A stretch of 64,000 nucleotides of DNA from a virus (Duplodnaviria; Heunggongvirae; Uroviricota; Caudoviricetes): IMG/VR virus record IMGVR_UViG_3300029725_000197. The stretch is one strand, 5' to 3'. The notes under the pieces are model-generated. The model did not search any database. It saw nothing but the letters and a program-made list of their open reading frames with translations, and was not told the origin of the DNA. Positions 5,590 through 55,505 of the stretch are shown one piece after another. The translations under genes were made by a program, and so were the position numbers. The number at the start of each line of letters is the position of its first letter. The first letter of the stretch is position 1.

Positions 5590-6153
5590 ATGGGGAGAAA
5601 GAAAAAGAATGCCCGGTCAGCAGCACATGGACGAAAGATCCACGTTAATAAATACATCAATCAGCGAGGAAAGACCAAGAAAAGGGCCGTAGCCTCCTGT
5701 CAGCCGGCACCTAATAGAGTGCTGCTTCAGGAGATGCCGCTTACCAGATGGCCGGTACCAAAGATACCGAAGCAGTATGAGATCTGGTTTGCAGAACTGG
5801 GGAATCATTATGGCACTTCGGTGCAGAGCGGAAACCGCCCGGTTCTGGTTATCAGCAACGATATGGCAAACCGCAATTCTCCGATCATCACGGTAATCCC
5901 GATGAGTTCCAAGCTGAAGAAGCTGGAGCTGCCGGTACACATTCTGGTCACCGGGAGAGACTGCGAAATGCTCCGGGATGAGGGACTGGAAGAATCCATT
6001 CTGCTGGTGGAGCAGATCACGACCATTGACAAGATGGTCCTGTGTAACCGGCTCTGCCGTGTGACCTCGGCCAAGAAAAAGCAGGAGATCGAAGCTGCTG
6101 TTAAAAAGCAGTTTGCGATGCAGGCTTGCATGGGAAGGGAGGCGCAGGCATGA
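5590..6153 (+). CDS. PemK/MazF-family endoribonuclease-like protein with ~50-aa basic N-terminal extension
   Basis: 'YEIWFAELGNHYGTSVQSGNRPVLVISNDMANRNSPIITVIPMSS' is the PemK/MazF core. RBS GGAGGTG 8 nt before ATG 5590. Its stop overlaps the primase start (ATGA). Confidence 0.65.
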   Translation: MGRKKKNARSAAHGRKIHVNKYINQRGKTKKRAVASCQPAPNRVLLQEMPLTRWPVPKIPKQYEIWFAELGNHYGTSVQSGNRPVLVISNDMANRNSPIITVIPMSSKLKKLELPVHILVTGRDCEMLRDEGLEESILLVEQITTIDKMVLCNRLCRVTSAKKKQEIEAAVKKQFAMQACMGREAQA

Positions 6154-9923: not shown

Positions 9924-10283
9924 ATGCCATACAGACCAAAGACACCGTGCCATCATCCCGGCTGCCCAGAGCTGGTGGAAGCCGGCCGGCTCTACTGTGA
10001 GAAGCACCTGCCTCTCCATCCAGAGGTGACCCGCCCGGCAGCGAAGCGTGGATACAACAGGCGGTGGCAGAAAGTCAGAAAGTCGTATCTGGAAGCTCAT
10101 CCACTCTGTGTGCAGTGCGCCAAGCAGGGCAAGTACGTCCGGGCAACGGTTGTGGATCACATCATTCCACACCGTGGTGACCAGAAGCTTTTCTGGGATC
10201 AGAACAACTGGCAGCCGCTCTGCAAAAGCTGCCACGATAAGAAGACCCTGAACGAAGACATCAACCCGACCTACACCTACTGA
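9924..10283 (+). CDS. HNH endonuclease
   Basis: CxxC…'VDHIIPHRGD…NWQPLCKSCHDKKT' HNH motif. Confidence 0.85.
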   Translation: MPYRPKTPCHHPGCPELVEAGRLYCEKHLPLHPEVTRPAAKRGYNRRWQKVRKSYLEAHPLCVQCAKQGKYVRATVVDHIIPHRGDQKLFWDQNNWQPLCKSCHDKKTLNEDINPTYTY

Positions 10284-10683: not shown

Positions 10684-10983
10684 ATGGATGATTACACGGC
10701 TGAGATGATAAGGGACATGGCTTTTTCGTTCTGCCCTCAGTGCGGTACAGCCATTGTGCCGAATCATAAAGGCAGACCGAAAAAGTTCTGCTCACCGGAA
10801 TGCCGGTCAAGGTGGAACAACACCCACCCAAAGCCGGAAAACTGGAGAACAGTGCGGTCAAAGATCTGTCCGGTGTGCGGCAGGGAGTTTTCCTACCGGC
10901 ATCAGTACGGATTGGAACGGAAATATTGCAGCCGTGGTTGTGCAAACCGGGGCAGAAAGAAGGAGGCGAACAGGAGTGAGTAA
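10684..10983 (+). CDS. zinc-ribbon (2x CxxC…CxxC) hypothetical protein
   Basis: RBS 'gaggtgaggg' upstream. 'CPQCG…CSPEC…CPVCG…CSRGC' cysteine pairs. Confidence 0.55.
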   Translation: MDDYTAEMIRDMAFSFCPQCGTAIVPNHKGRPKKFCSPECRSRWNNTHPKPENWRTVRSKICPVCGREFSYRHQYGLERKYCSRGCANRGRKKEANRSE

Positions 10984-14834: not shown

Positions 14835-15911
14835 ATGTTGAAATTTGAATTGAACATAGCCGACCGTAAGACACTTGCAAATCGCATGGAGGAGCTGACG
14901 GGCATCCATCCTTACTACACCAGAGCACCGCTGTATGCTTATGACATCGGCAACTACACCATCGACCGGGACGGTAATCTTCTGGTAGAGCCGGAAAATG
15001 CAGATGCCGAGCTGCTGACGACCCTGCTGAATGAGGGGTTGATCCGCGGCGGCGAGAGCATTGAGAGCACGGATGACCAGCCGGAGGACGCAGAGCCGAC
15101 CGAGAATTTGGCAGATGAGTCTGTGGCCGAAGAGGAGCCGGATGGTGCAACAGAGGATGAGCCAGATGCAGAGGAATCGGAAAGCGAAGAGCAGCCGGAA
15201 GCAGAAGAGCAGCCGGAGGAAGTTCCGCTGGATCTGGAACTTGCTTTTCCCACCAGCCAGCATAACGGCGTGAGCCTTCGCAATCTGGTCAACCTCATCT
15301 ACAGCCGGGGCCGACTCATCAGCAAGGCAACGGGCGGGCACTTTCATGTGGAAACTGACCTGGTCGAAACACTGCGGGATGACAGTTGCACCTACACGGT
15401 GGCAAACTTCATCGAGGCGCTTAAAAGTTACGAAGCACAGTGCGGAACTGCGATGGAAGGTCTGGTGATCACAGAAGAAAAGGTTTCCTCCACAGGATTC
15501 CCGACGGCTTCCGACTATGATCATCTGACGGCTTTCGGTCACCTTGCCATTCTGATGAACCAGCAGGCGATCAGCCAGAAGCGCATCCAGGCAAAGGATG
15601 TCAACGATGAGAATGAGAAGTATGCACTCCGCACATGGCTCCTGCGGCTTGGGATGAACGGTCCGGATTTCAAAGAGACCCGCAAGATCCTCATGGAGAA
15701 TCTTTCCGGCCATGCGGCTTTCCGGACGGATGAGGAAGCACAGAAGTTCCTTGCAAGGGAAAAGGCAAAACGGGATGCCCTGAAAGCCGCGAAACAGGCG
15801 GCACAGAACAGCAATCCTGCCACTGGGGAAACGGCCGCACAGGATGCAGCCCAGCCGACACAGCCCGACTGTGGGGCGAATACGGCGCAGATGCTGGAGG
15901 CGGGAGCGTAA
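14835..15911 (+). CDS. diverged amidoligase (Amidoligase_2/GS-like) paralog with ~70-aa poly-acidic insert
   Basis: Aligns by eye to 16144-17082: 'FELNIADRKTLANRMEELTG'~'VEIEMNNITREKAARKVAEYFG', 'NLVNLIY'~'NLVNIMA', 'GGHFHVE'~'GCGVHIHIG'. Shares the C-terminal motif KYA[LM]R.W[LM]LRLG…AA[FW]R. Large D/E-rich insert at aa 75-135. Confidence 0.55.
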   Translation: MLKFELNIADRKTLANRMEELTGIHPYYTRAPLYAYDIGNYTIDRDGNLLVEPENADAELLTTLLNEGLIRGGESIESTDDQPEDAEPTENLADESVAEEEPDGATEDEPDAEESESEEQPEAEEQPEEVPLDLELAFPTSQHNGVSLRNLVNLIYSRGRLISKATGGHFHVETDLVETLRDDSCTYTVANFIEALKSYEAQCGTAMEGLVITEEKVSSTGFPTASDYDHLTAFGHLAILMNQQAISQKRIQAKDVNDENEKYALRTWLLRLGMNGPDFKETRKILMENLSGHAAFRTDEEAQKFLAREKAKRDALKAAKQAAQNSNPATGETAAQDAAQPTQPDCGANTAQMLEAGA

Positions 15912-16067
15912 GCTCCCAAGCCCCCAATGGGGGCCGGAAAATAAGTGAGACCCTCTTCAATTGTACCGATATTAACTCTGAAAATGTACATTATCAAGCA
16001 GATAAACCGCAGAAATGTACACGATCATTCTGCCTCATATTTGTCGAATATATGTTCTTTTATATCC

Positions 16068-16130
16068 TTGCTATTATCCGCACCTGACGGTAATATGCAC
16101 ATACCGAAAGGGAAAACAAGGAAAAAACAA
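16068..16130 (+). promoter_or_regulatory. promoter cassette copy P7 (TTGCTA-17-TAATAT gcacataccgaaaggg)
   Basis: -35/-10 elements with 17-nt spacing and the conserved leader, upstream of the amidoligase gene. Confidence 0.5.
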
Positions 16131-16143
16131 AGGAGAACATACC

Positions 16144-17082
16144 ATGAACGATAAAACAAGAGAGCAGATTGAAGCCATGAAAAACCAGACCATCGGAGTT
16201 GAGATCGAGATGAACAACATCACCAGAGAAAAAGCGGCAAGAAAGGTTGCCGAGTACTTCGGAACCAGAGCATGGAACGCCGCCAGCGAGTACGGATATT
16301 ACAGCTGGGCTTGCAAGGATGGACAGGGCAGGGTTTGGAAATTCCAGAGGGATGTGAGCATCTACGGACCGGACGCAGAAAAATGCGAACTGGTCACCCC
16401 GATCCTCACCTACGACGACATCGAATCCCTGCAGGAAATCATCCGGCTGCTCCGCAAGGCAGGCGCAAAGAGCAGTCCAAGCCGCGGATGCGGGGTCCAC
16501 ATCCACATCGGCAAAGGCGACCACACCGCAAAGACCATCCGCAACCTTGTGAACATCATGGCGGCACACGAACAGCAGATCGGCAGAGCCATCCGGATCG
16601 ACGCAGGGCGTACCGGACAATATTGCCGGGTAGTCGAGCACCGCTTCCTCGACCGGCTGAACCGCGAGAAGCCGACCACCATGCGCAAGCTGGAAGACAT
16701 CTGGTACGAAGGCAACGGTTCCAGCTGGGAAAACCGGAATGCCCACTACAATTCAAGCCGGTACCATATGCTGAACCTCCATGCCACCTTTACAAAAGGA
16801 ACCATTGAATTCCGCCTTTTCCAATTCGCAGACCCAGCGGACGGAAAGCGTAACGGACTGCATGCCGGTGAGATGAAAGCCTACATCCAGCTTTGCCTCG
16901 CAATGAGCCAGCTTGCCAAGATGGTCAGAACGGCAAGCCCGAAGCCTCAGCAGACCGACAACGACAAATACGCAATGCGGTGCTGGATGCTCCGGCTGGG
17001 ATTCATTGGTGAGGAGTTCGCAACGGCAAGGGAAATCCTTCTGCGGAATATGGAGGGCAACGCAGCATGGCGCAACAAATAA
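16144..17082 (+). CDS. putative amidoligase (carboxylate-amine ligase, Pfam Amidoligase_2-like)
   Basis: 'IGVEIEMN', 'GCGVHIHIG' and 'GTIEFRLFQ' motifs typical of the phage amidoligase family. 312 aa. Confidence 0.65.
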   Translation: MNDKTREQIEAMKNQTIGVEIEMNNITREKAARKVAEYFGTRAWNAASEYGYYSWACKDGQGRVWKFQRDVSIYGPDAEKCELVTPILTYDDIESLQEIIRLLRKAGAKSSPSRGCGVHIHIGKGDHTAKTIRNLVNIMAAHEQQIGRAIRIDAGRTGQYCRVVEHRFLDRLNREKPTTMRKLEDIWYEGNGSSWENRNAHYNSSRYHMLNLHATFTKGTIEFRLFQFADPADGKRNGLHAGEMKAYIQLCLAMSQLAKMVRTASPKPQQTDNDKYAMRCWMLRLGFIGEEFATAREILLRNMEGNAAWRNK

Positions 17083-17150
17083 GCGCCAGCTGTACGGGCA
17101 CCTTTTGGGCGGGCAACCGCCCTTGAGGTGGTAGAAGGAGGTGCAGGTTT

Positions 17151-17387
17151 ATGAAAAGCACGTTAAAAAATGAAAGCACACCGGGCGGCAGGACCTTTAA
17201 GGTGACCATCACCGAGACCTACCAGAGAACGGTGACCATTTATGAATCCGAAATGAAAGAGCCGACCGTGCAGGAAGCCCAGCGAGTGGCAGAGGACTGG
17301 TGGCAGGACAGCCAGATTGAGCTTGGGACAGATGATTTCCAGGGCGTGGAATTCACTGGCAGGGAGGACGGTGAGGCGGATGTTTGA
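17151..17387 (+). CDS. small acidic hypothetical protein
   Basis: RBS GAAGGAGGTG before ATG 17151. 78 aa, between the amidoligase and GGCT genes. Confidence 0.5.
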   Translation: MKSTLKNESTPGGRTFKVTITETYQRTVTIYESEMKEPTVQEAQRVAEDWWQDSQIELGTDDFQGVEFTGREDGEADV

Positions 17388-17901
17388 ATTGATCAGCCGA
17401 AGCCCATCCAGATATTATCTTGCCTACGGAAGCAACCTCGACATGGAGCGGATGGGAAAGAGATGCCCCTATGCTGTGGTGGTCGGCACGACCGAGATCA
17501 AGGGCTACCGGCTTCTGTTCAAAAAGAGCAAGACCGGCTGCTATGCCACCATTGAGCAGGACGCCAATGAAAGCGTACCGGCAGTGGTCTGGAAGCTCTC
17601 GGAATATGATGAGCTCCTGCTGGACCGGTACGAGGGCTGCCCAAGATACTACTACAAGAAACAGTTTCAGCTTCCGGTCTGGAACCTGAACGGGAACCGC
17701 ATGAAAAAGGCAAAGCCCTGCATCGCTTATGTGATGCACGAGGACCGGCGGCTTGGCTGCCCGGATGCCGAGTATTTTGAACTGCTGCGCGGCGGATACA
17801 GCGACTGGGAATTTCCGCTGGACACACTGAAGCGTGGACTGGCAGCTAGTATCGGAAGGGCGGAAGCCATCCGGTATCTGAAGAAGCAGCAGATGATGTA
17901 A
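17380..17901 (+). CDS. gamma-glutamyl cyclotransferase-like (AIG2/GGCT fold) protein 1
   Basis: 'YYLAYGSNL' N-terminal motif and 'VVW…YEG.P..Y' pattern. ATG 17380 overlaps the upstream stop. Confidence 0.65.
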   Translation: MFELISRSPSRYYLAYGSNLDMERMGKRCPYAVVVGTTEIKGYRLLFKKSKTGCYATIEQDANESVPAVVWKLSEYDELLLDRYEGCPRYYYKKQFQLPVWNLNGNRMKKAKPCIAYVMHEDRRLGCPDAEYFELLRGGYSDWEFPLDTLKRGLAASIGRAEAIRYLKKQQMM

Positions 17902-18031
17902 GAGTACACGATCAAAAGCAAAAAACATTGTGCAGTATATGATGCTCATCGGCCTTGATAAATCAGGGCAGAAGAGTGATATATACCATACCGCCAGACA
18001 AGAGCGGAGAAAACCGAAGGGAGAGATTCAA

Positions 18032-18511
18032 ATGAAGAACAAGAAATATTACATCGCCTACGGCAGCAACCTGTCGGTGGAGCAGATGGCATACCGGTGT
18101 CCGGATGCAAAAATTGCAGGGCAGGCGGTGCTGGCAGGCTGGGAGCTTTTGTTCCGGGGCTGCGCCACCATCGCACCGAACCCGAAGAAGAACACGCCGG
18201 TTCTGGTGTGGGAGATTTCGGAAAGGGACGAAGGAAACCTCGACCTCTATGAGGGCTACCCGAATTACTACCGCAAGGAAGACCTGAACATCGAACTGCT
18301 CCGGGAAGGGGCAGAACCGGAGATGGTGACCGCAATGGTATATATCATGGAGAACGACTTCGGACGCCGCGCACCGAGCCGGTATTACTACAAAGTTCTG
18401 CATGACGGCTATAAGGCATTCCGCTTCCCGATGCACATCCTCGAAGGTGCGCTGAAGGAATGCATGGATAAGGATGCCGCCCAGCGGATGATCGAGGAGG
18501 TGCAGGCATGA
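18032..18511 (+). CDS. gamma-glutamyl cyclotransferase-like (AIG2/GGCT fold) protein 2
   Basis: 'YYIAYGSNL…LVWEISE…LDLYEGYPNYY' is paralogous to 17380-17901. Confidence 0.65.
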   Translation: MKNKKYYIAYGSNLSVEQMAYRCPDAKIAGQAVLAGWELLFRGCATIAPNPKKNTPVLVWEISERDEGNLDLYEGYPNYYRKEDLNIELLREGAEPEMVTAMVYIMENDFGRRAPSRYYYKVLHDGYKAFRFPMHILEGALKECMDKDAAQRMIEEVQA

Positions 18512-18975
18512 ATTTCGCAGATCAGAAAATGGTCAGGAAGTTGAGAAAAGAGTTCCCGGTCGGATGCCGGATCGTCCTCGATGAGATGGATGACAAGCAG
18601 GCACCGCCCATCGGAACGCAGGGAACCTGCAACGGGGTCGATGATGCCGGAAACATCTTGGTGAGCTGGGACACCGGAAGCCATCTGAACGTTGCCTACG
18701 GCGCGGACAGTTGCCACCGTGTGGCTTCGGAAGCCGAGGTCAAGGTGTCGCTCGACCGCCTTGGTAAAACGCGACAGACCGGCCCACGTTGCCCCAGGTG
18801 CGGAGCAAAGCCTGACTGTTACGACCATCAGCAGCAGGCACTCAGCCGAAGGGCGGACATCCAGATCTGCAACCGCTGCGGAACGGAGGAAGCATTAGAG
18901 GACATTGCATGGGGCGGACAGCAGAAGATGCATCTTGCAGACTGGGCAATCGTGAAAGGAGGCTGGGTCGAATGA
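18508..18975 (+). CDS. DUF4314-like domain + C-terminal zinc-ribbon protein
   Basis: 'VGCRIVLDEMDDKQAPPIGTQGTCNGVDDAGNILVSWDTGSHL' resembles DUF4314 (from memory). C-terminal CPRCG…CNRCG. Confidence 0.4.
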   Translation: MNFADQKMVRKLRKEFPVGCRIVLDEMDDKQAPPIGTQGTCNGVDDAGNILVSWDTGSHLNVAYGADSCHRVASEAEVKVSLDRLGKTRQTGPRCPRCGAKPDCYDHQQQALSRRADIQICNRCGTEEALEDIAWGGQQKMHLADWAIVKGGWVE

Positions 18976-19343
18976 AGGTTCTTCTGATCAAACCGATGGA
19001 GCATCCGCAGGTGGTGGACATTGAAAACTCCCTGAAAGAGTTCTACCGCATCCTCGACTGCGACTGCATCACAGCCACCTACCCGTGGGAAGAACGCGCC
19101 GTCCTGGTCACCGATGACAACGGGCTGTTCACCGAGAAGTCATTCAGCAGATACGTTCCGGAGCTGGAGCAGCCCATCAAGGGAAACTTCTTCATCTGCG
19201 GATTGGGCGAGGAAGATTTCGCAGAGCTGCCCCAGGACCTCATCCAGAAATTCAGGGAACGCTTCTGGGTGCCGGAGGCATTCGTCAGCATGTTCGGGCA
19301 GATGGCAGTCATCCAGATGGATGACGGAACGAAGCCGGAATAA
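18972..19343 (+). CDS. DUF3846-like protein
   Basis: 'MKVLLIKPMEHPQVVDIENSLKEFYRIL…NFFICGLGEEDFAEL' fits the DUF3846 pattern (from memory). Start overlaps the upstream stop. Confidence 0.45.
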   Translation: MKVLLIKPMEHPQVVDIENSLKEFYRILDCDCITATYPWEERAVLVTDDNGLFTEKSFSRYVPELEQPIKGNFFICGLGEEDFAELPQDLIQKFRERFWVPEAFVSMFGQMAVIQMDDGTKPE

Positions 19344-19414
19344 GATACCACAATCAGAAAAATACCCTCTCGGCCAGAAAAGACCGGGAGGGCTTGGTTT
19401 AACAGGAGGAGCCT

Positions 19415-19606
19415 ATGGGACACAGGAAGATGCCGGCTTATGGCGAGAGGGAACACGGCGGCAGATACATTCTGGATGAATACGAATGGTCGAGAAATCA
19501 CGGCAAGGCGGTGACCATCCGCAGATGGAAAAGAGACCTGAAAAAGAAAGCCAGGGCGCATAACCGCAGGGTGATGCATCAGGCAATGCAGGGCGAAGCC
19601 GATTAG
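19415..19606 (+). CDS. small basic hypothetical protein
   Basis: RBS AGGAGGAG before ATG 19415. 63 aa. Confidence 0.4.
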   Translation: MGHRKMPAYGEREHGGRYILDEYEWSRNHGKAVTIRRWKRDLKKKARAHNRRVMHQAMQGEAD

Positions 19607-19805
19607 ACGGAAAATGGGGGCCTCAAAAGAATGAGAACCCCCTTCCAGTTTACTGTATATTACCTCTGGAAAGCAACGATAGCAAGAAGAACCGCCGCCA
19701 TAATGTACACAAACATCTGGCAGCGGTTTTGTGTATCATACCAAATCAAAACGGGGGATACGAGGCAGAACCCCAGCTTCTGCTGGGGGAGCCTTTTGGG
19801 ATTCC

Positions 19806-20057
19806 TTAGAAGAAATCCCTCATGCTCATGCCGACCTCGTTCAGTCGTTCTTCCATGCTGTGGTAGTGCCAATCTTCTTCCTCTTCTTCGTCCTCTTCCT
19901 CAAGCTCTTCTGGGAAGGGGTCGTGCCGCCATCCGGCTTTCTGGTATTCTTCTTCCCGGATGTCGTTGCGGTCGTAAATGTCCAGCTCGTATTCTTCTTC
20001 AAGCTCTGCGATGCGGTTTTCGATTGCGGTTTCAACTTCTGTAATGGTCTTTTTCAT
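19806..20057 (-). CDS. small acidic protein (E-rich) on the minus strand
   Basis: On the reverse strand, RBS GGAGG before ATG (20057). 'EELEEEDEEEEEDWHYH'. Driven by the divergent cassette copy P9. Confidence 0.5.
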   Translation of the reverse strand: MKKTITEVETAIENRIAELEEEYELDIYDRNDIREEEYQKAGWRHDPFPEELEEEDEEEEEDWHYHSMEERLNEVGMSMRDFF

Positions 20058-20099
20058 GGTTTTTGTCCTCCGTTTTTGGTTTGGTTTTCTTTGCTTTCG

Positions 20100-20136
20100 T
20101 TGTGTGTATAATGCCGCAGAAACACATATATAGCAA
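20100..20136 (-). promoter_or_regulatory. promoter cassette copy P9 (minus strand; TTGCTA-17-CATTAT)
   Basis: Reverse-complement cassette, divergent from P1. Confidence 0.4.
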
Positions 20137-20206
20137 GTCAATCAGGGGTTATATATGTACCAAACATGAGGGGCAAAGAACGTTGATAATATGACGTTTT
20201 ATGGCC

Positions 20207-20255
20207 TTGCTATCACAGGGCGGTGACGGTAATATACAGCTACAAAAAGCAAAGG
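20207..20255 (+). promoter_or_regulatory. promoter cassette copy P1 (TTGCTA-17-TAATAT acagctac)
   Basis: 'ggccTTGCTAtcacagggcggtgacggTAATATacag'. Confidence 0.5.
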
Positions 20256-20266
20256 AGGACAGCAAA

Positions 20267-20443
20267 ATGGCTGATTGGAGAACATGGAAAAAAGGGAGAA
20301 AGACAACATGGCACTGGAACGAATTCGATGGAAGCGGAAGCCGGGAAGGAATCATCACCGAGGTTCATGAAGACCATGCGATTATGGAAGCAGACGGCAT
20401 GCACCTTTGGATCGACGATGACACGGCAGAGATGTTCAGCTAA
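20267..20443 (+). CDS. small acidic hypothetical protein (58 aa)
   Basis: RBS AAGGAGG before ATG 20267. Confidence 0.45.
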   Translation: MADWRTWKKGRKTTWHWNEFDGSGSREGIITEVHEDHAIMEADGMHLWIDDDTAEMFS

Positions 20444-20523
20444 GAAAACGGGGAGGGAAACCTCCCCGGATAAACACATAAATCCTCCAGATCAGGGGGC
20501 AGATGATCGTGTACTTTAGCCGC

Positions 20524-20575
20524 TTGATAGTATCCGGCAGTGACGGTAATATACAGCTACCAAAACGAAAGGGGC
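20524..20575 (+). promoter_or_regulatory. promoter cassette copy P2 (TTGATA-17-TAATAT)
   Basis: 'gccgcTTGATAgtatccggcagtgacggTAATATacagctaccaaaacgaaaggggcaaag'. Confidence 0.55.
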
Positions 20576-20582
20576 AAAGAAC

Positions 20583-20789
20583 ATGGAACGCTACACTTAT
20601 GAGATCACCTTTACACGGCTGGATGGACAGCAGGATGAAATCCAGCAGCACACCAGCGAGGAGCTGGCAAGAGAATGCTTCCGGCTTTTCGATGAGCCGG
20701 ACAGCGCAGAGATGTACAGCAAAATTGAACTTAGCCGCCATGACTGGGAGACAGGCATGGATGAGATTCTGGAAACGATGACATTTTGA
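20583..20789 (+). CDS. small acidic hypothetical protein (68 aa)
   Basis: ATG directly after the conserved leader. Confidence 0.45.
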   Translation: MERYTYEITFTRLDGQQDEIQQHTSEELARECFRLFDEPDSAEMYSKIELSRHDWETGMDEILETMTF

Positions 20790-20804
20790 GAGGAGAACAA
20801 AAAC

Positions 20805-21065
20805 ATGACCTACACAAAAATCAACCTTTATCTTGCAAACGGAATTCCAGAGGCACTCAGCAACCTCTGGTACGGAAGCGACAGTGCGGTGGTCGAGATC
20901 AGGGATGCCGTTGAGGATGCGAAGAACGGCAAGGACCTTCTGAACCGTATCCAGAAGATGAAGCTCCTTCGGAAATTCACCCTCGACAGGGAGAACGACA
21001 AGCGCATCCGCTTCAAGGGAACGGACTGCTGGGGCAACGTAAGCTACCTCGAAATCATCCGCTAA
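20805..21065 (+). CDS. hypothetical protein (86 aa)
   Basis: RBS GAGGAG before ATG 20805. Co-transcribed with 20583. Confidence 0.45.
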   Translation: MTYTKINLYLANGIPEALSNLWYGSDSAVVEIRDAVEDAKNGKDLLNRIQKMKLLRKFTLDRENDKRIRFKGTDCWGNVSYLEIIR

Positions 21066-21084
21066 AGGCAAGACCGACAGGCGC

Positions 21085-21116
21085 AAGGGGCTGGAAATGA
21101 CCAGCCTTTTGCTCGT
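21085..21116 (+). terminator. terminator (GGCTGG aaatga CCAGCC TTTTGCTCG)
   Basis: Perfect 6-bp stem plus T-run. Confidence 0.5.
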
Positions 21117-21193
21117 GTCTGTCTTCCGAAAGCTGGCATGAAAAGCACATAAATATGACAATTACAGGATTGAATGATCGTGTAGTTTAGCCG

Positions 21194-21245
21194 CTTGATA
21201 GTGTTTCGAGGTGACGGTAATATACAGTCACCGAAAGGGGAAAAC
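21194..21245 (+). promoter_or_regulatory. promoter cassette copy P3 (TTGATA-17-TAATAT inside GGTGAC…GTCACC palindrome)
   Basis: 'gccgcTTGATAgtgtttcgagGTGACggTAATATacaGTCACCgaaagggg'. Confidence 0.6.
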
Positions 21246-21267
21246 AACAAAAACGGAGGATACGACA

Positions 21268-21738
21268 ATGACGAAGAACGAAGACCGCATCAATAAACTT
21301 TTCAAGGAACTGGTACCGGATACGGGCAAGGCAGACAGCCTCGCAGGGGAGCTGGTAAGGGCAATGAGCCGCATCGGATACTGCTTTTACAACGACGGCG
21401 ACCAGCTGGGCATCGGCTACGGCAGGGAAACCTGCAACCCTGCAGGGCGGTTCCTTGGAGCCAAGGGCAACGACAAAATCGCAAAGCTGACTGCAGATGC
21501 CTGGGCAGTCTACAGTGAGGAAGCCTACGAAAAGGTTCTGGACATCCTTTGCGGAGCGGTTGCCGACTATGTTGAGCAGAACCCAGACCTTAGAAACCAG
21601 CCGACCGAAGATATGTGGGACTTCAAGGATGAGGAAGAAGACCAGGATGACAGCTGGGATGAAGAGGAAGATGACTGGGGCGAAGAGGAAGATGACTGGG
21701 GCGAAGAGGAAGATTACGAGGACGAAGAAGACTACTAA
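21268..21738 (+). CDS. hypothetical protein with poly-acidic D/E-W repeat tail (…DEEEDQDDSWDEEEDDWGEEEDDWGEEEDYEDEEDY)
   Basis: RBS 'aaacggagga' before ATG 21268. 157 aa. Confidence 0.55.
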   Translation: MTKNEDRINKLFKELVPDTGKADSLAGELVRAMSRIGYCFYNDGDQLGIGYGRETCNPAGRFLGAKGNDKIAKLTADAWAVYSEEAYEKVLDILCGAVADYVEQNPDLRNQPTEDMWDFKDEEEDQDDSWDEEEDDWGEEEDDWGEEEDYEDEEDY

Positions 21739-21751
21739 GCCAGAGAAACAC

Positions 21752-21786
21752 ATGGGGCTTGCCGGTAACGGCAGCCCTTTTCTTCT
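21752..21786 (+). terminator. terminator (GGGCTTGCCG gtaa CGGCAGCCC TTTTCTTCT)
   Basis: Stem-loop plus T-run. Confidence 0.45.
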
Positions 21787-21835
21787 GCTGTAATACGCAC
21801 AGTTCCGGGCGGCTATCTTTGTGTAGTATAGCCGC

Positions 21836-21890
21836 TTGATAGTGTGTGACATAGACGGTAATATGCACATACCGAAACGGAAAACCAAGA
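21836..21890 (+). promoter_or_regulatory. promoter cassette copy P4 (TTGATA-17-TAATAT gcacataccgaaacgg)
   Basis: Conserved -35, spacing, -10 and leader. Confidence 0.55.
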
Positions 21891-21908
21891 AAAACGGAGG
21901 AAACCACC

Positions 21909-22100
21909 ATGAAGAAGAACATCACCAAGGAAGAGGGAAAAGCCCTGCTGGAGATCGCCAAGCGCCTGATGGTAGCGGTAGACAGCCGGGGAGATCTCGA
22001 AGCCCGCGACAATGACAGCGAAGATTTCATTGAGGTTCCGGTCTGGGGCATCCAGAAAGCAATGGAGGAAGCCTACCTGCTGGGACGGATGAACAGATAA
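21909..22100 (+). CDS. small acidic hypothetical protein (63 aa)
   Basis: RBS 'aacggagga' before ATG 21909. Confidence 0.45.
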   Translation: MKKNITKEEGKALLEIAKRLMVAVDSRGDLEARDNDSEDFIEVPVWGIQKAMEEAYLLGRMNR

Positions 22101-22229
22101 ACCGACAGCCCCCCGACACAGCCCCACACAGGGGCTTGTGCCACGGGTGGCAAAACGATCCGAATGAAGCGACAACGCCCCACACAGGGGAAGATGTGGC
22201 GGCGTGGATGCCCCAGGAAGGAAAAGCAC

Positions 22230-22445
22230 ATGGAAGAACGGATGATGGATACCATCGTGGAAATCTACAACCATATGGATGACAGCGATAAGGATGCCTT
22301 CACACTGGAGGATGCCGAGGATATGGTGGAAGACCAGATCAGGATGGACAAGGAAGCTGGACGGGAACCGCTGGCATATGACCCGCAGTTCTTCTACGAT
22401 ACCATTGTAGACCTCATGGAGCAGGATGCCGAAGATGCAGAGTAA
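22230..22445 (+). CDS. small acidic hypothetical protein (71 aa)
   Basis: RBS 'aggaaggaaaag' before ATG 22230. No cassette of its own. Confidence 0.4.
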   Translation: MEERMMDTIVEIYNHMDDSDKDAFTLEDAEDMVEDQIRMDKEAGREPLAYDPQFFYDTIVDLMEQDAEDAE

Positions 22446-22494
22446 TGTACATTCTGCCCGGTATTCTGGGAAGATGATCGTGTAGTATAGCCGC

Positions 22495-22560
22495 TTGATA
22501 GTGTGCCGAAGTGACGGTAATATACAGTCACCGAAAGGGGCAAAGCCCAAGGAAAACAAA
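22495..22560 (+). promoter_or_regulatory. promoter cassette copy P5 (TTGATA-17-TAATAT, GTGAC…GTCAC palindrome)
   Basis: 'gccgcTTGATAgtgtgccgaaGTGACggTAATATacaGTCACcgaaaggggcaaag'. Confidence 0.6.
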
Positions 22561-22579
22561 ACACACGGAGGATACGAAC

Positions 22580-22864
22580 ATGAAAAAGAATTTGATCGAC
22601 TTTCCAGAAAACAACATCAGCATTGAGAGTTTCTACGACCGGCTCAGACCTTGCTACGACAGCATCATGCAGTTCGGTGACCGGGTTTTGGTTGCCCAGA
22701 TGAACTGGAACGGCATGCTGGAGGGAGCGGTATACGGATTTGTGGAAGACCCAGAGGAAGGCTGGTCACCGATTGAGTGCCGACTGGAGCTTCTGAAGAT
22801 TTCCGATGAGACCTACACGGATGCCGGTCACGCGATCGAGTGGTGCATCAAGAACGCACACTGA
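22580..22864 (+). CDS. hypothetical protein (94 aa)
   Basis: RBS 'cacggagga' before ATG 22580. Confidence 0.45.
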   Translation: MKKNLIDFPENNISIESFYDRLRPCYDSIMQFGDRVLVAQMNWNGMLEGAVYGFVEDPEEGWSPIECRLELLKISDETYTDAGHAIEWCIKNAH

Positions 22865-22869
22865 AAAAG

Positions 22870-22906
22870 GGCAGAGCTCCTTCGGGGGCTTTTGCTCGTA
22901 GTGGCG
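22870..22906 (+). terminator. terminator (AGCTCC ttcg GGGGCT TTTGCTCG), UUCG loop
   Basis: Stem-loop plus T-run. Same TTTTGCTCG tail as the hairpin at 21085. Confidence 0.5.
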
Positions 22907-22976
22907 GATTCTTCCAGTGTGGAAATACACATAAATCCGACAAAAAGAGGTGTGTATGATCGTGCAGCATAGCCGC

Positions 22977-23045
22977 TTGCTATGTCCGGGCAGTGACGGT
23001 AATATACAGTCACAACGAAGGGAAAAGCCCTACGGAAAACAAAAC
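22977..23045 (+). promoter_or_regulatory. promoter cassette copy P6 (TTGCTA-17-TAATAT, GTGAC…GTCAC)
   Basis: 'gccgcTTGCTAtgtccgggcaGTGACggTAATATacaGTCACaacgaagggaaaag'. Confidence 0.55.
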
Positions 23046-23063
23046 ACACGGAGGATACAGACC

Positions 23064-23441
23064 ATGACGAACAAAGCAAAAACCTACCTTAAGAACATTC
23101 AGGAAGCCGACACCGAGAAGAAGCTGATCGGCATCGAGATCGCCTTCAAGCAGGACATGGCCCTCAGCTGCAACGACCTCGGAAGCCTTTGCAGGGCGGC
23201 AGAGGACAGGCGGTACAGCCTGCGGAACAACGAGGAGACGCTGAAGCTGAAGCAGATCCTTTTCTTCCGGACGAAAGCGGAGATGGATGCCTACCACGAT
23301 ATGAGCCGCAAGCCGGAAGACTGGACGGCAGAGGAGATCGAGCAGCAGAGAAGCCGCTTCTGCAGCGTCTGGCAGGTCATCGAGGAAGCGGAGCTGGTCG
23401 ATGAATACGAGGCTTGGAAGGAAGCCAACCCCAACGCCTAA
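23064..23441 (+). CDS. hypothetical protein (125 aa)
   Basis: RBS 'cacggagga' before ATG 23064. Confidence 0.45.
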   Translation: MTNKAKTYLKNIQEADTEKKLIGIEIAFKQDMALSCNDLGSLCRAAEDRRYSLRNNEETLKLKQILFFRTKAEMDAYHDMSRKPEDWTAEEIEQQRSRFCSVWQVIEEAELVDEYEAWKEANPNA

Positions 23442-23632
23442 CAGCACCCGAAAGGTACACGCCCCGAAAAGGGGCTGTGCCTCGTATCCGATGTGTTTTA
23501 TATAAAGTTGCCGAAATGGGAAACTATTTGTTAGTTATACAGAAAAGTTTCCTGCTTAGGAAAATGCTATTACAAGGACTTCTTTGGAGGTCCTTTTTCT
23601 TTACCCATTTTTGCAGAAAGGAGGAGATGCCA

Positions 23633-24112
23633 ATGGCTACCAGAGGCAGAAAACCAAAGCCGACCGCCATGAAGGAACTGGAAGGTAATCCGGGCAAGCA
23701 TCCGCTGAACACCAGCGAACCGAAGCCCAATAAGAAAGCACCGGCCTGTCCGAAGTGGCTGGAGCCGGAAGCAAAGAAAGAGTGGCGTAGACTTGCCAAA
23801 CAGATGGAAGCCATCGGCATCCTGACCGAAGTGGACATGGCGGCCTTTGCCGGTTACTGTCAGGCGTATGCCCGATGGAAGGAGGCAGAGGAGTTCATCA
23901 CCCAGCATGGCACTATCGTCAAGACCCCGTCCGGGTACTGGCAGCAGGTGCCGCAGGTGTCCATCGCCCAGACCTATCTGAAGATCATGAACAAGTTTGC
24001 AGAGCAGTTCGGTCTGACCCCGTCCTCCCGAAGCCGGATCATTGCTTCGGACGGCGGTCCTGCGGATGCAGCTGATGAGATGGAGAATCTGCTGGGAGGA
24101 GGTGGAAGCTGA
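23633..24112 (+). CDS. terS: terminase small subunit (P27 family)
   Basis: 'GRKPKPTAMKELEGNPGKHPLN…EFGLTPSSRSRI' is the P27-family signature. RBS AAAGGAGGA upstream. Confidence 0.8.
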   Translation: MATRGRKPKPTAMKELEGNPGKHPLNTSEPKPNKKAPACPKWLEPEAKKEWRRLAKQMEAIGILTEVDMAAFAGYCQAYARWKEAEEFITQHGTIVKTPSGYWQQVPQVSIAQTYLKIMNKFAEQFGLTPSSRSRIIASDGGPADAADEMENLLGGGGS

Positions 24113-53288: not shown

Positions 53289-53335
53289 TTGCTATAAGTG
53301 CCGGATAGAGCAAATATGTCACTACCCGAAGATAG
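53289..53335 (+). promoter_or_regulatory. promoter cassette copy P10 (TTGCTA-17-AAATAT gtcactacccgaag) upstream of recombinase genes
   Basis: Diverged copy. Followed by the perfect 8-bp hairpin TTTTCCTT-tcgg-AAGGAAAA at 53361-53380. Confidence 0.4.
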
Positions 53336-53402
53336 GAAAAGGCGGTGGCATTACCACACGTTTTCCTTTCGGAAGGAAAATCTGACGAAAGGAGAGGACG
53401 AT

Positions 53403-55505
53403 ATGGATTCAAATGCTTTTCTGAATGATCTTATGTCAAAGATGAAGCTGCCGGAAGCAAAAGGAAAGAAAAAGGCAGAACAGAATGAATCGGTGGCGCA
53501 GATTCTTGCCGCCATGCAAAAAGTCAGGGCTGAGAAAAAGAAGCCGCCCGTAACCAGCTATGCACCAGTAAAAGAAATGCTGGTGAATGAGCCAGAGAGT
53601 ATGGAAGAATTCTCCCAGCTCGCATCCGATGTGATGCAGGAATGCCGGCCAGCAATGCCGACGGTGAAAACATCAATTTCAGAGAAGGCTGTTCGGGTTG
53701 CCGCATATATCCGTGTTTCCTCCACCAATCCGGCACAGGAAGATTCGTATGAAATGCAGGAACGCTACTTTATGTCACTCCTGGCAGGAAATGCGGGATG
53801 GACATCTGCCGGCATTTATTCCGATCATGGCATTTCCGCAACAAGCAGGGATGGACGGACAGGATTTAACCGGTTGCTCCGGCACTGCAAGCAGGGGAAG
53901 ATTGACCGTGTGATCTGCAAGTCCATCAGCCGTTTTGCCCGAAACACGCAGGACTTTCTTGTGGCATTGCGGACTTTAAAGGAAAACAATGTCACGATCC
54001 TGTTTGAGCGGGAAGCGATGGATACAGCGGATGCTTACAGCGAGTTCATTCTTACTACGCTGGCCGCCATTGCCCAGGAAGAGAGCCGTTCGATTTCAGC
54101 AAACATTGCATGGAGCAATCAGAAACGGTTTCCGGCCGGAAATGTCTGCAACAAGGATATCTACGGATACGAATTCCGCAAAGGGGAGTATACAGTGAAC
54201 GAGAACGGATACCGATACCGGGCAGTGTTCATCATCCCGGAAGAAGCAGAGATTGTTCGGATGGTGTTCCGGCTTTTTACAAAAGAAGAATTAGGCTTCA
54301 CACAGATCGCCCAGAAGCTGGATGCCCTGCATATCCCGCCGCCGAACAGCGGATGCAGACAGCGGCAAAAGCGGAAACCGACTGTGCTGCCAGCTGGCAC
54401 ACTAAAGGAAGAAGATAAGCGGGGGTGGACGGCAACGGATGTTCGGTACATGATCGCAAACGTTCGTTACTGCGGTTCTGTACTTTGTCAGAAGACCTAC
54501 ACCGATCACAGGAATGGGCATAAACAGAAGGTCAATAAGGGGGAAAAGCCGAAATACCTGATACGAAATCATCATCCGGCTATCATTTCGGAAGAATTGT
54601 GGCAGGAAGCACAGGAAGTCTGGAAGGCATACACGGCAAAGTACAGGGGTATTGAAAAAGGAAGAAACGAAAGAAACTATTCCAAGCTCCTGCTGTGTGG
54701 AAAATGCGGACGGTATTTTCAAGGCCATTCCACAACAAGGACAACCATCTGGCGGTGTGCGACGAAGCTCGCCCAGCAGGGACTGAAGCGCTGCCGAATG
54801 GAACCGATTTATGAAGAGCAGATCCAGACGCTGCTTTGCAAAGCATTTGCCGAAAAATTCAAGCTGGGTGAGGAGATGGATGCAGAAGTTCATGAGGTCA
54901 TGCAGATGATCTCCAAAGCACCCATTGATAATGCGAGAAATCAGGCATTAAAGAACCTGACTGAGAAGCTGAGAGAGATCCATGATTTCGACCATATGGA
55001 GCAGGAAGGGGATTTTCTGAAACGCCAGCTGTCTGCAGTGAACTATAGCATTCGGGATGTCCACCAGCACATTCGGGATATTCAGGCGGAAAAAGAAGCA
55101 TTGAAAGTGCGATGTGAGGTGCTGGGAGAACCGAGAGATAAAGAAGCAGTCACAGAGTTAGAAAACCGACTTCTCAATGAAGAAGAACAGCTGGAGAAGC
55201 TGGAACATGAAGCCCAGCAACAGGCCGAACAGGTTCGGTACATGGAAGATTACTGGAAGAAGCTGGAGCAGACCCATGAAATCCGGGAGAAAACGCTGCA
55301 GTGGTTGGATTCGCTGGCGGGAGGGACGCAGATGTTTCTGGATGAAGCAGTTGGAACGTATGTGAAAGCCTTTGTGCTTTCCGTTACCATTTTTTCACCG
55401 AAACATTTTAGAATCCACTGGTTTGATGACACCTGTACGGAAGTGGAGTGTGACAGCGTATTTGAGGGCTATCAGCAGCCTGGCATGATAAGGAGGAAGT
55501 ATTGA
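53403..55505 (+). CDS. large serine recombinase 1 (integrase candidate)
   Basis: 'VAAYIRVSSTNPAQEDSYEMQ' catalytic Ser region, resolvase N-domain, recombinase domain, and a Zn ribbon (CGKCGRYF…CATK). RBS GGAGAGGA upstream. Confidence 0.85.
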   Translation: MDSNAFLNDLMSKMKLPEAKGKKKAEQNESVAQILAAMQKVRAEKKKPPVTSYAPVKEMLVNEPESMEEFSQLASDVMQECRPAMPTVKTSISEKAVRVAAYIRVSSTNPAQEDSYEMQERYFMSLLAGNAGWTSAGIYSDHGISATSRDGRTGFNRLLRHCKQGKIDRVICKSISRFARNTQDFLVALRTLKENNVTILFEREAMDTADAYSEFILTTLAAIAQEESRSISANIAWSNQKRFPAGNVCNKDIYGYEFRKGEYTVNENGYRYRAVFIIPEEAEIVRMVFRLFTKEELGFTQIAQKLDALHIPPPNSGCRQRQKRKPTVLPAGTLKEEDKRGWTATDVRYMIANVRYCGSVLCQKTYTDHRNGHKQKVNKGEKPKYLIRNHHPAIISEELWQEAQEVWKAYTAKYRGIEKGRNERNYSKLLLCGKCGRYFQGHSTTRTTIWRCATKLAQQGLKRCRMEPIYEEQIQTLLCKAFAEKFKLGEEMDAEVHEVMQMISKAPIDNARNQALKNLTEKLREIHDFDHMEQEGDFLKRQLSAVNYSIRDVHQHIRDIQAEKEALKVRCEVLGEPRDKEAVTELENRLLNEEEQLEKLEHEAQQQAEQVRYMEDYWKKLEQTHEIREKTLQWLDSLAGGTQMFLDEAVGTYVKAFVLSVTIFSPKHFRIHWFDDTCTEVECDSVFEGYQQPGMIRRKY

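Follow-up and report, generated by a model that had tools for sequence, protein, structure and literature searches.

Background

T4-type myoviruses carry promoter-early stem-loop (PeSL) cassettes (Arbiol et al. 2010, PMC2839356; Comeau et al. 2014, PMC4122927), which are repeated composite terminator/promoter motifs of about 100 nt. They lie directly 5' of small genes without assigned function, end with the Shine-Dalgarno sequence and start codon of the gene that follows, and are concentrated in one plastic region, where recombination between neighbouring cassettes leaves a single chimeric cassette. The same features, the terminator part less regularly, recur in the locus described here, a block of nine small open reading frames (ORFs; o1 to o9) at positions 19806-23441 of a 64,000-nt stretch of DNA (the window) from the IMG/VR virus record IMGVR_UViG_3300029725_000197 (Caudoviricetes), the chimeric cassette being that left by a deletion of o2 in a relative. 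The two systems also differ. PeSL cassettes belong to lytic T4-like myoviruses of Gram-negative bacteria, whereas the present block belongs to a temperate siphophage of Gram-positive anaerobes. The upstream region is AT-rich in the PeSL cassettes, but here it carries a GC-containing box, with GACGG before the -10 hexamer, a conserved transcript start and only a moderate match to the sigma-70 consensus. The stem-loop is interleaved with the promoter in PeSL cassettes, whereas here it stands 60-100 nt upstream and is missing from some copies. The present array is also far less plastic among close relatives, and it is known from sequence alone.

Three other systems invite comparison. SPO1's host-takeover module (PMC6873191) is likewise a cluster of small genes in a phage of Firmicutes, arranged in several short operons with their own promoters and good ribosome-binding sites, and many of its products are acidic. 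In SPO1 Gp44 a flexible acidic region acts as a single-stranded-DNA mimic (PMC8208478); o5, which is predicted to combine a folded N-terminal domain with a disordered, strongly acidic repeat region, resembles it by analogy and not by membership; the N-terminal domain of o5 is itself acidic and is not a DNA-binding motif. SPO1, however, is lytic and carries its module in the terminal redundancy, and the array, which has no sequence or fold relationship to SPO1 proteins, is compared with it here by architecture only. The morons of lambdoid and other temperate phages (PMC3594210) share with the present units the organization into independent promoter-gene-terminator units between conserved genes, and horizontal spread. 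Classical morons, however, are single and sporadic, with unrelated promoters and often an atypical base composition, whereas here seven units have one conserved cassette and a fixed location across the lineage. Finally, Ocr and ArdA resemble most of the array products in being small, strongly acidic phage or plasmid proteins whose genes lie close to functions in methylation and anti-restriction. No array protein matches them in sequence, however; o5 and o9 are modelled as ordinary helical bundles, disorder is predicted for the acidic stretches of o5 in place of a rigid B-DNA-like surface, and we do not place the array proteins among the DNA mimics of this kind.

We propose, with a probability of roughly 0.55 for the explanation as a whole, that the block is an expanded accessory-gene region of a temperate Lachnospiraceae siphophage resembling Candidatus (Ca.) Heliusvirales, made up of seven short units with nine real genes, in which a lineage-specific composite cassette doubles as expression start and recombination seam. 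As we read it, the cassette often begins with the terminator hairpin of the preceding unit and would run on through a ATGATCGTGTA-type box, a TTGATA -35 hexamer, a 17-nt spacer ending in GACGG, a TAATAT -10 hexamer, a conserved ACCGAAAGG transcript start and an A-rich leader to a ACGGAGGA ribosome-binding site. It would give every unit its own start of transcription and translation, the transcription being most likely by host sigma-A RNA polymerase, probably aided or gated by a factor that recognizes the conserved positions outside the consensus. The cassettes, as direct repeats of about 75-150 nt, would also be a substrate for homologous recombination, by which units could be deleted, inserted, swapped and reordered, following the same logic as in the T4-type PeSL cassettes. 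The cassette biology is a more solid result than any reading of the protein functions. The sequence comparisons establish the genes, the cassettes, the restriction of the latter to 16-23 kb and the rearrangement of units; promoter activity, expression timing, the factor acting at the box and every protein function are inferred.

Results and discussion

A composite cassette confined to one region

The pattern TTG[AC]TA-N15-GGTAATAT occurs nine times at no more than one mismatch, against 0.04 expected, and all nine copies lie at 15969-23005, that is, between 16 and 23 kb of the 64-kb window. Six of them, on the plus strand, stand ahead of o2, o3, o5, o6, o8 and o9, and one more heads an amidoligase operon; two are on the minus strand, and a tenth, degenerate copy lies ahead of o1. 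The layout of TTG[AC]TA-N17-TAATAT, a leader of 30-58 nt, ACGGAGGA and ATG is that of a PeSL motif. P_o3 (20503-20552) has the ATGATCGTGTA box at 20503-20513, followed by the -35 hexamer TTGATA and GACGG-TAATAT. P_o5 (21174-21223) has the box at 21174-21184 and both hexamers, with a CACATAAAT motif 5' of it at 21146; the same motif is found at 22928, ahead of P_o9 (22956-23005), which has the box ATGATCGTGCA and TTGCTA-N17-TAATAT. P_o6 (21815-21864) carries the variant box ATCTTTGTGTA with TTGATA-N17-TAATAT, and P_o8 (22474-22523) has box, -35 and -10. P_o2 (20207-20235) reads TTGCTA-N17-TAATAT and is without the ATGATCGTGTA box. Divergent from it, on the minus strand, is the degenerate P_o1 (20108-20136), which reads TTGCTA-N17-CATTAT and is followed by an A-rich leader and a ACGGAGGA Shine-Dalgarno sequence.

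An initial annotation of the window had called these promoters strong, a claim that the data do not establish: the cassette agrees with the sigma-70 consensus at nine of 12 positions, a level that shuffled sequence also reaches, and 11 sites of this quality are present in 9 kb against 5.8 expected. The exceptional feature is conservation outside the hexamers. The best-conserved positions that are not part of the sigma-70 consensus are the upstream ATGATCGTGTA box, the GACGG before the -10 hexamer and the ACCGAAAGG leader. Among 191 distinct copies from relatives, whose consensus is gATgATcGTgta-N10-CTTGcTA...GACGGTAATATaCAg.tACcgAAAgG, the information content peaks at the box, the -35 hexamer, GACGGTAATAT and ACCGAAAGG. 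The box is an asymmetric 11-mer that is almost absent elsewhere in the window; it lies 10 nt from the -35 hexamer in plus-type copies and 20 nt, one helical turn more, in minus-type copies. Arms of the form GTGAC...GTCAC surround the -10 hexamer in three copies.

The two minus-strand copies have neither an ORF nor a ribosome-binding site, and each is followed by a terminator hairpin about 40 nt downstream (19598-19685 and 15900-15997 with the hairpins). One (19657-19685) is present in all of the 41 related intervals described below. The other (15969-15997) forms a divergent pair (15969-16096) with the plus-strand copy at 16068-16096, which is predicted to drive the amidoligase-GGACT-DUF4314-DUF3846 operon. 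Transcripts of these orphan copies would be about 45-55 nt long and would run antisense to the 3' end of the plus-strand operon upstream.

A diverged form of the cassette was found in other Ca. Heliusvirales phages, where it consists of the box ATCTTTGTGTA, about 44 nt, CAGAGCGAATATGTACCTACCGAAAGG, an A-rich leader and ACGGAGGA, and precedes the amidoligase gene as well as the one or two small ORFs that come before TerS. There are three copies in NatCom_22372 (Coprococcus), three in NatCom_6238 (Agathobacter), one in NatCom_31361 (Dorea) and none in NatCom_27009 (Blautia). The hexamers of this form are further from the consensus (TGGATA-N17-GAATAT), with the box and the transcript start kept, and it is closest to the orphan minus-type copies of the window, with which it has GTGTACATTATGG in common. 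Given this diverged homologue, the lineage of the window has an expanded version of a lineage-wide promoter/leader class.

Several of these features might mean that the box and the extended -10 region serve primarily as operators for a prophage repressor or another phage regulator, like the 'stoperators' of mycobacteriophage L5: the box keeps a fixed distance from the -35 hexamer (10 or 20 nt), the GTGAC...GTCAC arms flank the -10 hexamer, and the conservation goes beyond what sigma-70 recognition needs. However, the box is limited to one 7.5-kb region and lies 5' of the -35 hexamer, a position more often bound by activators than by repressors, and searches of the window identified no DNA-binding regulator. 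Operators would, moreover, leave room for recombination between the copies, which has direct evidence in its favour. We regard a primary operator function as a tentative proposal that is compatible with the expression start and recombination seam favoured here, and its likelihood is not to be read as exclusive of that explanation. As for transcription factors, the PHROGs searches found no sigma factor or late activator among the unannotated ORFs of the left arm, but just HNH endonucleases and an amidoligase-like protein.

A bolder extension, which we think rather improbable, is that the cassette is no ordinary sigma-A promoter but the recognition module of a Ca. Heliusvirales-specific regulon and also a platform for gene capture and shuffling. 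In this lineage the platform would have grown from one to three units to ten, collecting counter-defence proteins that are expressed first. A phage or host factor would then read the box, the GACGG or CAGAG extension and the transcript start, and the cargo would include a new family of flexible acidic nucleic-acid mimics (that of o5, with more than 1100 sequence clusters).

Nine genes in seven predicted transcription units

All nine ORFs are present where the initial annotation had placed them, each with a Shine-Dalgarno sequence 5-10 nt ahead of its ATG. They are o1 (19806-20057; 83 residues), the sole minus-strand gene of the block, and, on the plus strand, o2 (20267-20443; 58), o3 (20583-20789; 68), o4 (20805-21065; 86), o5 (21268-21738; 156), o6 (21909-22100; 63), o7 (22230-22445; 71), o8 (22580-22864; 94) and o9 (23064-23441; 125). 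Compared with 22-68 distinct ungapped alleles of related phages, the ratio of nonsynonymous to synonymous polymorphism (pN/pS) of the nine ranges from 0.09 to 0.25 (0.14 for o1, 0.09 for o2, 0.21 for o3 and o4, 0.25 for o6 and 0.18 for o7), the value for o5, 0.21, being a single comparison with the one ungapped allele that qualified; TerS gave 0.07 and DUF3846 gave 0.32. This purifying selection on all nine identifies them as real protein-coding genes.

The nine ORFs form seven predicted transcription units, so that the earlier description of each ORF behind its own promoter holds for seven promoters and fails for o4 and o7, which have no cassette. The gene o3 leads a two-gene unit in which o4 starts 15 nt past its end; in the window o4 is without a separate promoter, and a cassette of its own stands ahead of it in relatives with an inserted ORF of 182 codons (the L161 type) or without o3. 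The gene o7 is probably co-transcribed with o6 across a structured, cassette-free spacer of 129 nt (22101-22229). Within it a CCCCACACAGGGG hairpin motif occurs twice, beside a third GC hairpin, no T-run following any of them, and the spacer matched no Rfam family; it is kept in L036 despite the loss of o6 and its promoter, o7 there following the o5 terminator. Rfam searches of the whole window at the gathering threshold, and of 19400-23800 at an E-value threshold, gave nothing credible, and the leaders and spacers therefore contain no known RNA element.

The units had also been described as separated by terminators, which is correct for some of them. A hairpin with a T-run follows o4 (21083-21112; 12-bp stem, then UUUUGCU; z-score -5.5), o5 (21754-21787; then UUUUCUUCU) and o8 (22869-22897; a terminator-like hairpin with a UUCG loop, then UUUUGCUCG, the tail sequence being the same as after o4), and on the minus strand a partial terminator follows o1 (19771-19788; then UUCUGCC; z-score -2.1). 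By contrast, the GC-rich hairpin after o2 (20449-20468; z-score -4.4) has no T-run on the plus strand, the hairpin after o9 (23453-23482; z-score -3.4) has none adjacent, the hairpin after o6 likewise lacks one, and o7 is followed by almost no structure. Seen from the promoters, hairpins lie 60-100 nt ahead of P_o3, P_o5, P_o6 and P_o9, and almost none precedes P_o8. A canonical terminator at 23574-23603, preceded by an AT-rich stretch in the spacer 23442-23632, closes the block directly 5' of the ribosome-binding site of TerS. Three or four of the seven units have both a canonical promoter and a canonical terminator and are, in the sense used for morons, independent units between conserved genes.

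Gain, loss and reordering of units

Searches with TerS recovered 80 IMG/VR loci and those with the 19-nt cassette core more than 120 contigs; the exact long cassette pattern had no match in viral contigs. Gene maps were drawn for 41 distinct IMG/VR intervals from DUF3846 to TerS and for seven bacterial genomes. The order o1 to o9 is largely kept across the 41 intervals, and entire units come and go. About a third of the intervals are without o2 and several are without o3 (L024, L116 and L123 among them); o6 is missing in L036, and both o6 and o7 are missing in L050. One sub-lineage has an ORF of 182 codons with its own cassette between o3 (or o2) and o4, and in L050 and L165 the o8 slot holds a paralogue with 37-38% identity. 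All six of o4 to o9 are present in 37 of the 40 other IMG/VR intervals and in five of the seven genome loci, the exceptions being L036, L050, L165, L197 and L201.

The more distant loci are rearranged more deeply. After the GGACT genes L197 has only o5, o8 and o9, each with its promoter, and L200 has an additional unit of 165 codons. In the Pullilachnospira prophage L201 the order is o1 (minus strand), o5, a new ORF of 59 codons, o2, a new ORF of 79 codons, and DUF7678 with a new ORF of 67 codons, followed by TerS; cassettes stand ahead of o5, the first new ORF, o2, the second new ORF and DUF7678. Here o2 lies downstream of o5, and o3, o4 and o6 to o9 are replaced by unrelated ORFs, with the cassette and the amidoligase-GGACT genes kept. 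Across 195 loci (194 fetched plus the window), 883 cassette matches head 32 ORF families, eight of which are dominant.

In L156 the deletion of o2 switches from the flank of P_o2 to that of P_o3 inside the 21 nt that the two have in common (GTGACGGTAATATACAGCTAC), a junction that reads as the signature of recombination between direct repeats. When diverged genomes are compared, the similarity of cassettes in non-orthologous slots equals or exceeds that of cassettes in orthologous ones; P_o6 of the window, for example, has an identity of 0.53 to its L161 orthologue and of 0.80 to P_o5 of L161. Such similarity across slots argues for exchange among the copies. Together with the insertions, deletions and reordering of whole units, the o2 junction and the similarity across slots agree with breakpoints in the cassettes, as in the PeSL case; the o3 and o6 junctions lie at the cassette edge and not in its core.

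In L034, L053 and L165, a Phd/PIN toxin-antitoxin pair or an AAA_14-DUF4143 ATPase is found between o9 and TerS (4127-4886 in L034; 4248-5767 in L165). The spacer is replaced by cargo in these relatives and is therefore a second cargo slot.

The units might be classical morons, that is, cargo expressed from the resident prophage to the benefit of the lysogen through superinfection exclusion or fitness, rather than lytic weapons. The element is indeed a prophage: it encodes a holin, an endolysin and a pair of large serine recombinases downstream of the array, and the genomes of Clostridium fessum and Blautia contain near-identical integrated copies. An own promoter and terminator is the defining architecture of morons (PMC3594210), the strong terminator insulates the block from TerS, and the cargo in the neighbouring slot of the relatives just described is typical of genes expressed in lysogens. 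However, the amidoligase-GGACT operon, whose function is unlikely to be one of lysogeny, is headed by this cassette as well, the ORFs have no PADLOC defence matches and no membrane or exclusion-type features, the GC content of the array is similar to that of the neighbouring DNA, and cassette and position are conserved across the phage lineage rather than sporadic. We consider this explanation unlikely.

The proteins and their possible roles

As first proposed, most of the products are acidic. Seven of the nine have an isoelectric point (pI) below 5 (4.16 for o1, 4.75 for o2, 4.23 for o3, 4.05 for both o5 and o7, 4.45 for o8 and 4.94 for o9), compared with 19% of the background ORFs of the window (binomial P ~2e-4); o6 has a pI of 5.07, and the exception is the basic o4 (9.13). 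The net charges reach -22 in o1, which contains the acidic run EELEEEDEEEEEDW, -12 in o3, -33 in o5 and -20 in o7. No paralogy or sequence similarity was found among the nine. Hundreds of homologues exist for each ORF that was examined for them; those of o1, 364 in number, are all without annotation, and o1 is kept even in the distant relative L201 (59% identity).

The initial annotation was wrong in stating that no ORF has a recognizable domain. According to Pfam, o6 (phrog_2555) is a member of DUF6900 (PF21841; E-value 4.8e-18; 65.3 bits, gathering threshold 24.1; coverage of profile positions 3-51 out of 52) and o8 (phrog_6231) is a member of Nmad4 (PF18756; E-value 3e-20; 72.8 bits, gathering threshold 27; coverage of profile positions 7-86 out of 87), as is the paralogue that occupies the o8 slot in L050 and L165. 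Nmad4 stands for 'nucleotide modification associated domain 4', a name that reflects association with nucleotide-modification genes. The other seven ORFs had no match in Pfam, NCBIfam, PADLOC or the sequences of the Protein Data Bank (PDB), and PHROGs gave only families without assigned function; NCBIfam and PADLOC scans gave nothing for any of the nine, and PDB sequence searches with o1, o4, o6, o7 and o8 gave nothing below an E-value of 0.06.

Structure models were made for o5 and o9. The model of o5, built with 30 homologues, is a confident four-helix bundle over residues 1 to about 120, with a predicted local distance difference test score (pLDDT) above 90, followed at residues 130-156 by a disordered acidic-aromatic tail, DDSWDEEEDDWGEEEDDWGEEEDYEDEEDY. 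A 21-nt tandem repeat in three copies (21644-21727; WGEEEDD units) codes for the tail, and the number of repeats varies among homologues. The family of the N-terminal domain, for which there is no Pfam model, comprises 1124 clusters at 50% identity; o5 has the conserved motifs NDGD and YGxETCN. Ten long proteins with this domain revealed no informative fusion: nine of them have no Pfam domain, and the tenth, with MutS_I, is probably a gene-calling fusion. The model of o9 is also confident and all-helical (pLDDT 90.8). Neither model has a significant match to solved structures beyond generic helical bundles. DNA mimicry had been suggested for such small acidic products, but neither model is a rigid, DNA-shaped mimic.

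The block does lie where it was said to lie, between the methyltransferase module and the terminase, with S-adenosylmethionine (SAM) synthetase and the ParB-N6 and C5 methylases 5' of it, and TerS, TerL and portal genes 3'. The anti-defence or host-takeover role that had been assigned to it is plausible, the part that stands being a recombining accessory region of small, acidic products largely with their own promoters; it is unsupported by any match to an inhibitor, anti-defence, DNA-mimic or defence family in Pfam, PHROGs, NCBIfam, PADLOC or the PDB sequences. By analogy, the proteins are most likely small binders or inhibitors of host proteins, acting in host takeover or counter-defence; such roles are favoured because the proteins are small, acidic, unrelated to one another, presumably expressed independently, dispensable and encoded beside self-methylation genes. 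The strongest candidate for a flexible acidic nucleic-acid mimic is o5.

Several points weigh against the explanation that we favour. At nine of 12 sigma-70 positions, the cassette might be inactive without a specific factor, or might belong to a class that is not early. The promoter class is not specific to 'inhibitor' genes, since it is also found ahead of the amidoligase-GGACT-DUF4314-DUF3846 operon. Nothing links any ORF to a known inhibitor in the sequence searches, or in fold for o5 and o9, and the presence of Nmad4 and the promoter common with the amidoligase operon suit a modification pathway equally well. The o4 to o9 core varies less than typical anti-defence cargo: close relatives (TerS at least 94% identical) have kept most of the gene order and almost all carry o4 to o9, and the region is less plastic than the hyperplastic regions of T4. 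Lastly, only the o2 junction falls cleanly inside the cassette core, the deletions of o3 and o6 ending at the ribosome-binding site or just past the o5 terminator.

If the ORFs encoded accessory subunits or regulators of the neighbouring pathway of nucleic-acid or protein modification (SAM synthetase, two methylases, amidoligase and two GGACT enzymes), they would form one regulon with it and would not act as inhibitors of host proteins. Besides the membership of o8 in Nmad4, this would account for the promoter class in common with the amidoligase operon, which in other Heliusvirales occurs only there and ahead of the last ORFs before TerS, and for the fact that close relatives keep o4 to o9 under purifying selection. 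However, the pathway can do without most members, as L197 retains only o5, o8 and o9, and L201 swaps o3, o4 and o6 to o9 yet keeps the amidoligase-GGACT genes; moreover, no conserved motifs that look catalytic were seen, except possibly those of o5. We therefore hold an accessory role in modification to be improbable, slightly more so than that of morons. Chance reading frames or an assembly artefact, which the shortness of the ORFs and the many metagenome contigs that break near cassettes might suggest, are ruled out by the pN/pS values in dozens of alleles, in addition to the abundant homologues and the same layout in isolate genomes; the breaks near TerS look like repeat-induced assembly breaks.

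Genomic setting

Most of the window belongs to a prophage of a clostridial gut bacterium (human-gut Lachnospiraceae). The replication module 5' of the array encodes an SNF2 helicase, a D5-type primase and a PemK-like toxin, and is followed by an HNH endonuclease, SAM synthetase, and the ParB-N6 and C5 methylases. The toxin domain (PemK/MazF-like; E-value 1.7e-20) is in an ORF of 187 codons at 5590-6153. The HNH endonuclease (9924-10283) and a second, small HNH-related zinc-ribbon ORF (10684-10983) lie about 13 kb 5' of the P27-family TerS and do not adjoin it. An amidoligase-related ORF (14835-15911; phrog_2443) lies just 5' of the amidoligase operon, in which Amidoligase_2 (16144-17082) is followed by an ORF of 78 codons, two GGACT cyclotransferase-like genes, DUF4314, DUF3846 and a basic ORF of 63 codons (19415-19606), ahead of the array. 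On the 3' side TerS is followed by TerL, portal, head and tail genes, the holin, the endolysin and the two tandem large serine recombinases. A third recombinase lies about 3 kb beyond these, beside an AAA_25 ATPase; the stretches that hold the three recombinases, 53298-57709 and 60395-62269, could represent the prophage end and a second integrated element.

The nearest copy in a cultured genome is in Clostridium fessum (strain SNUG30386), with 96.8% identity across 11.7 kb, and further copies are found in genomes of Blautia, Acetatifactor, Wujia and Pullilachnospira and in one Faecalibacterium assembly. The prophage segments of Faecalibacterium intestinale CLA-AA-H281 (L198) and Blautia faecis DFI.3.66 (L199) are 96.6-99.3% identical across 12 kb, and the two genomes are assigned to different families (Oscillospiraceae/Ruminococcaceae and Lachnospiraceae); this could reflect an unusually broad host range, a recent transfer or a contaminated assembly. 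The nearest deposited phages are Ca. Heliusvirales genomes of human faeces. SAM synthetase and C5 methylase are reported to be common in the order Heliusvirales (PMC11283538); promoters and anti-defence regions are not mentioned in that paper, nor are DUF3846, DUF4314 and Nmad in the paper on polyvalent proteins (PMC5512222).

Conclusions

Prophages of the Ca. Heliusvirales type are among the most widespread phages of human-gut Lachnospiraceae, and almost nothing is known of their regulation or of their dealings with host defences. Should the proteins prove to be accessory factors of an ordinary kind for the modification module, the finding would shrink to a regulon of a well-described type. 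The cassette is a sequence handle for finding independently expressed accessory genes in metagenomes, as its 32 families of cargo illustrate, and for choosing candidates for anti-defence or host-takeover screens. To our knowledge, 'mobile regulatory cassettes' have so far been documented only for T4-type myoviruses, and the block described here would extend them, as drivers of modular evolution, to temperate phages of Gram-positive anaerobes.

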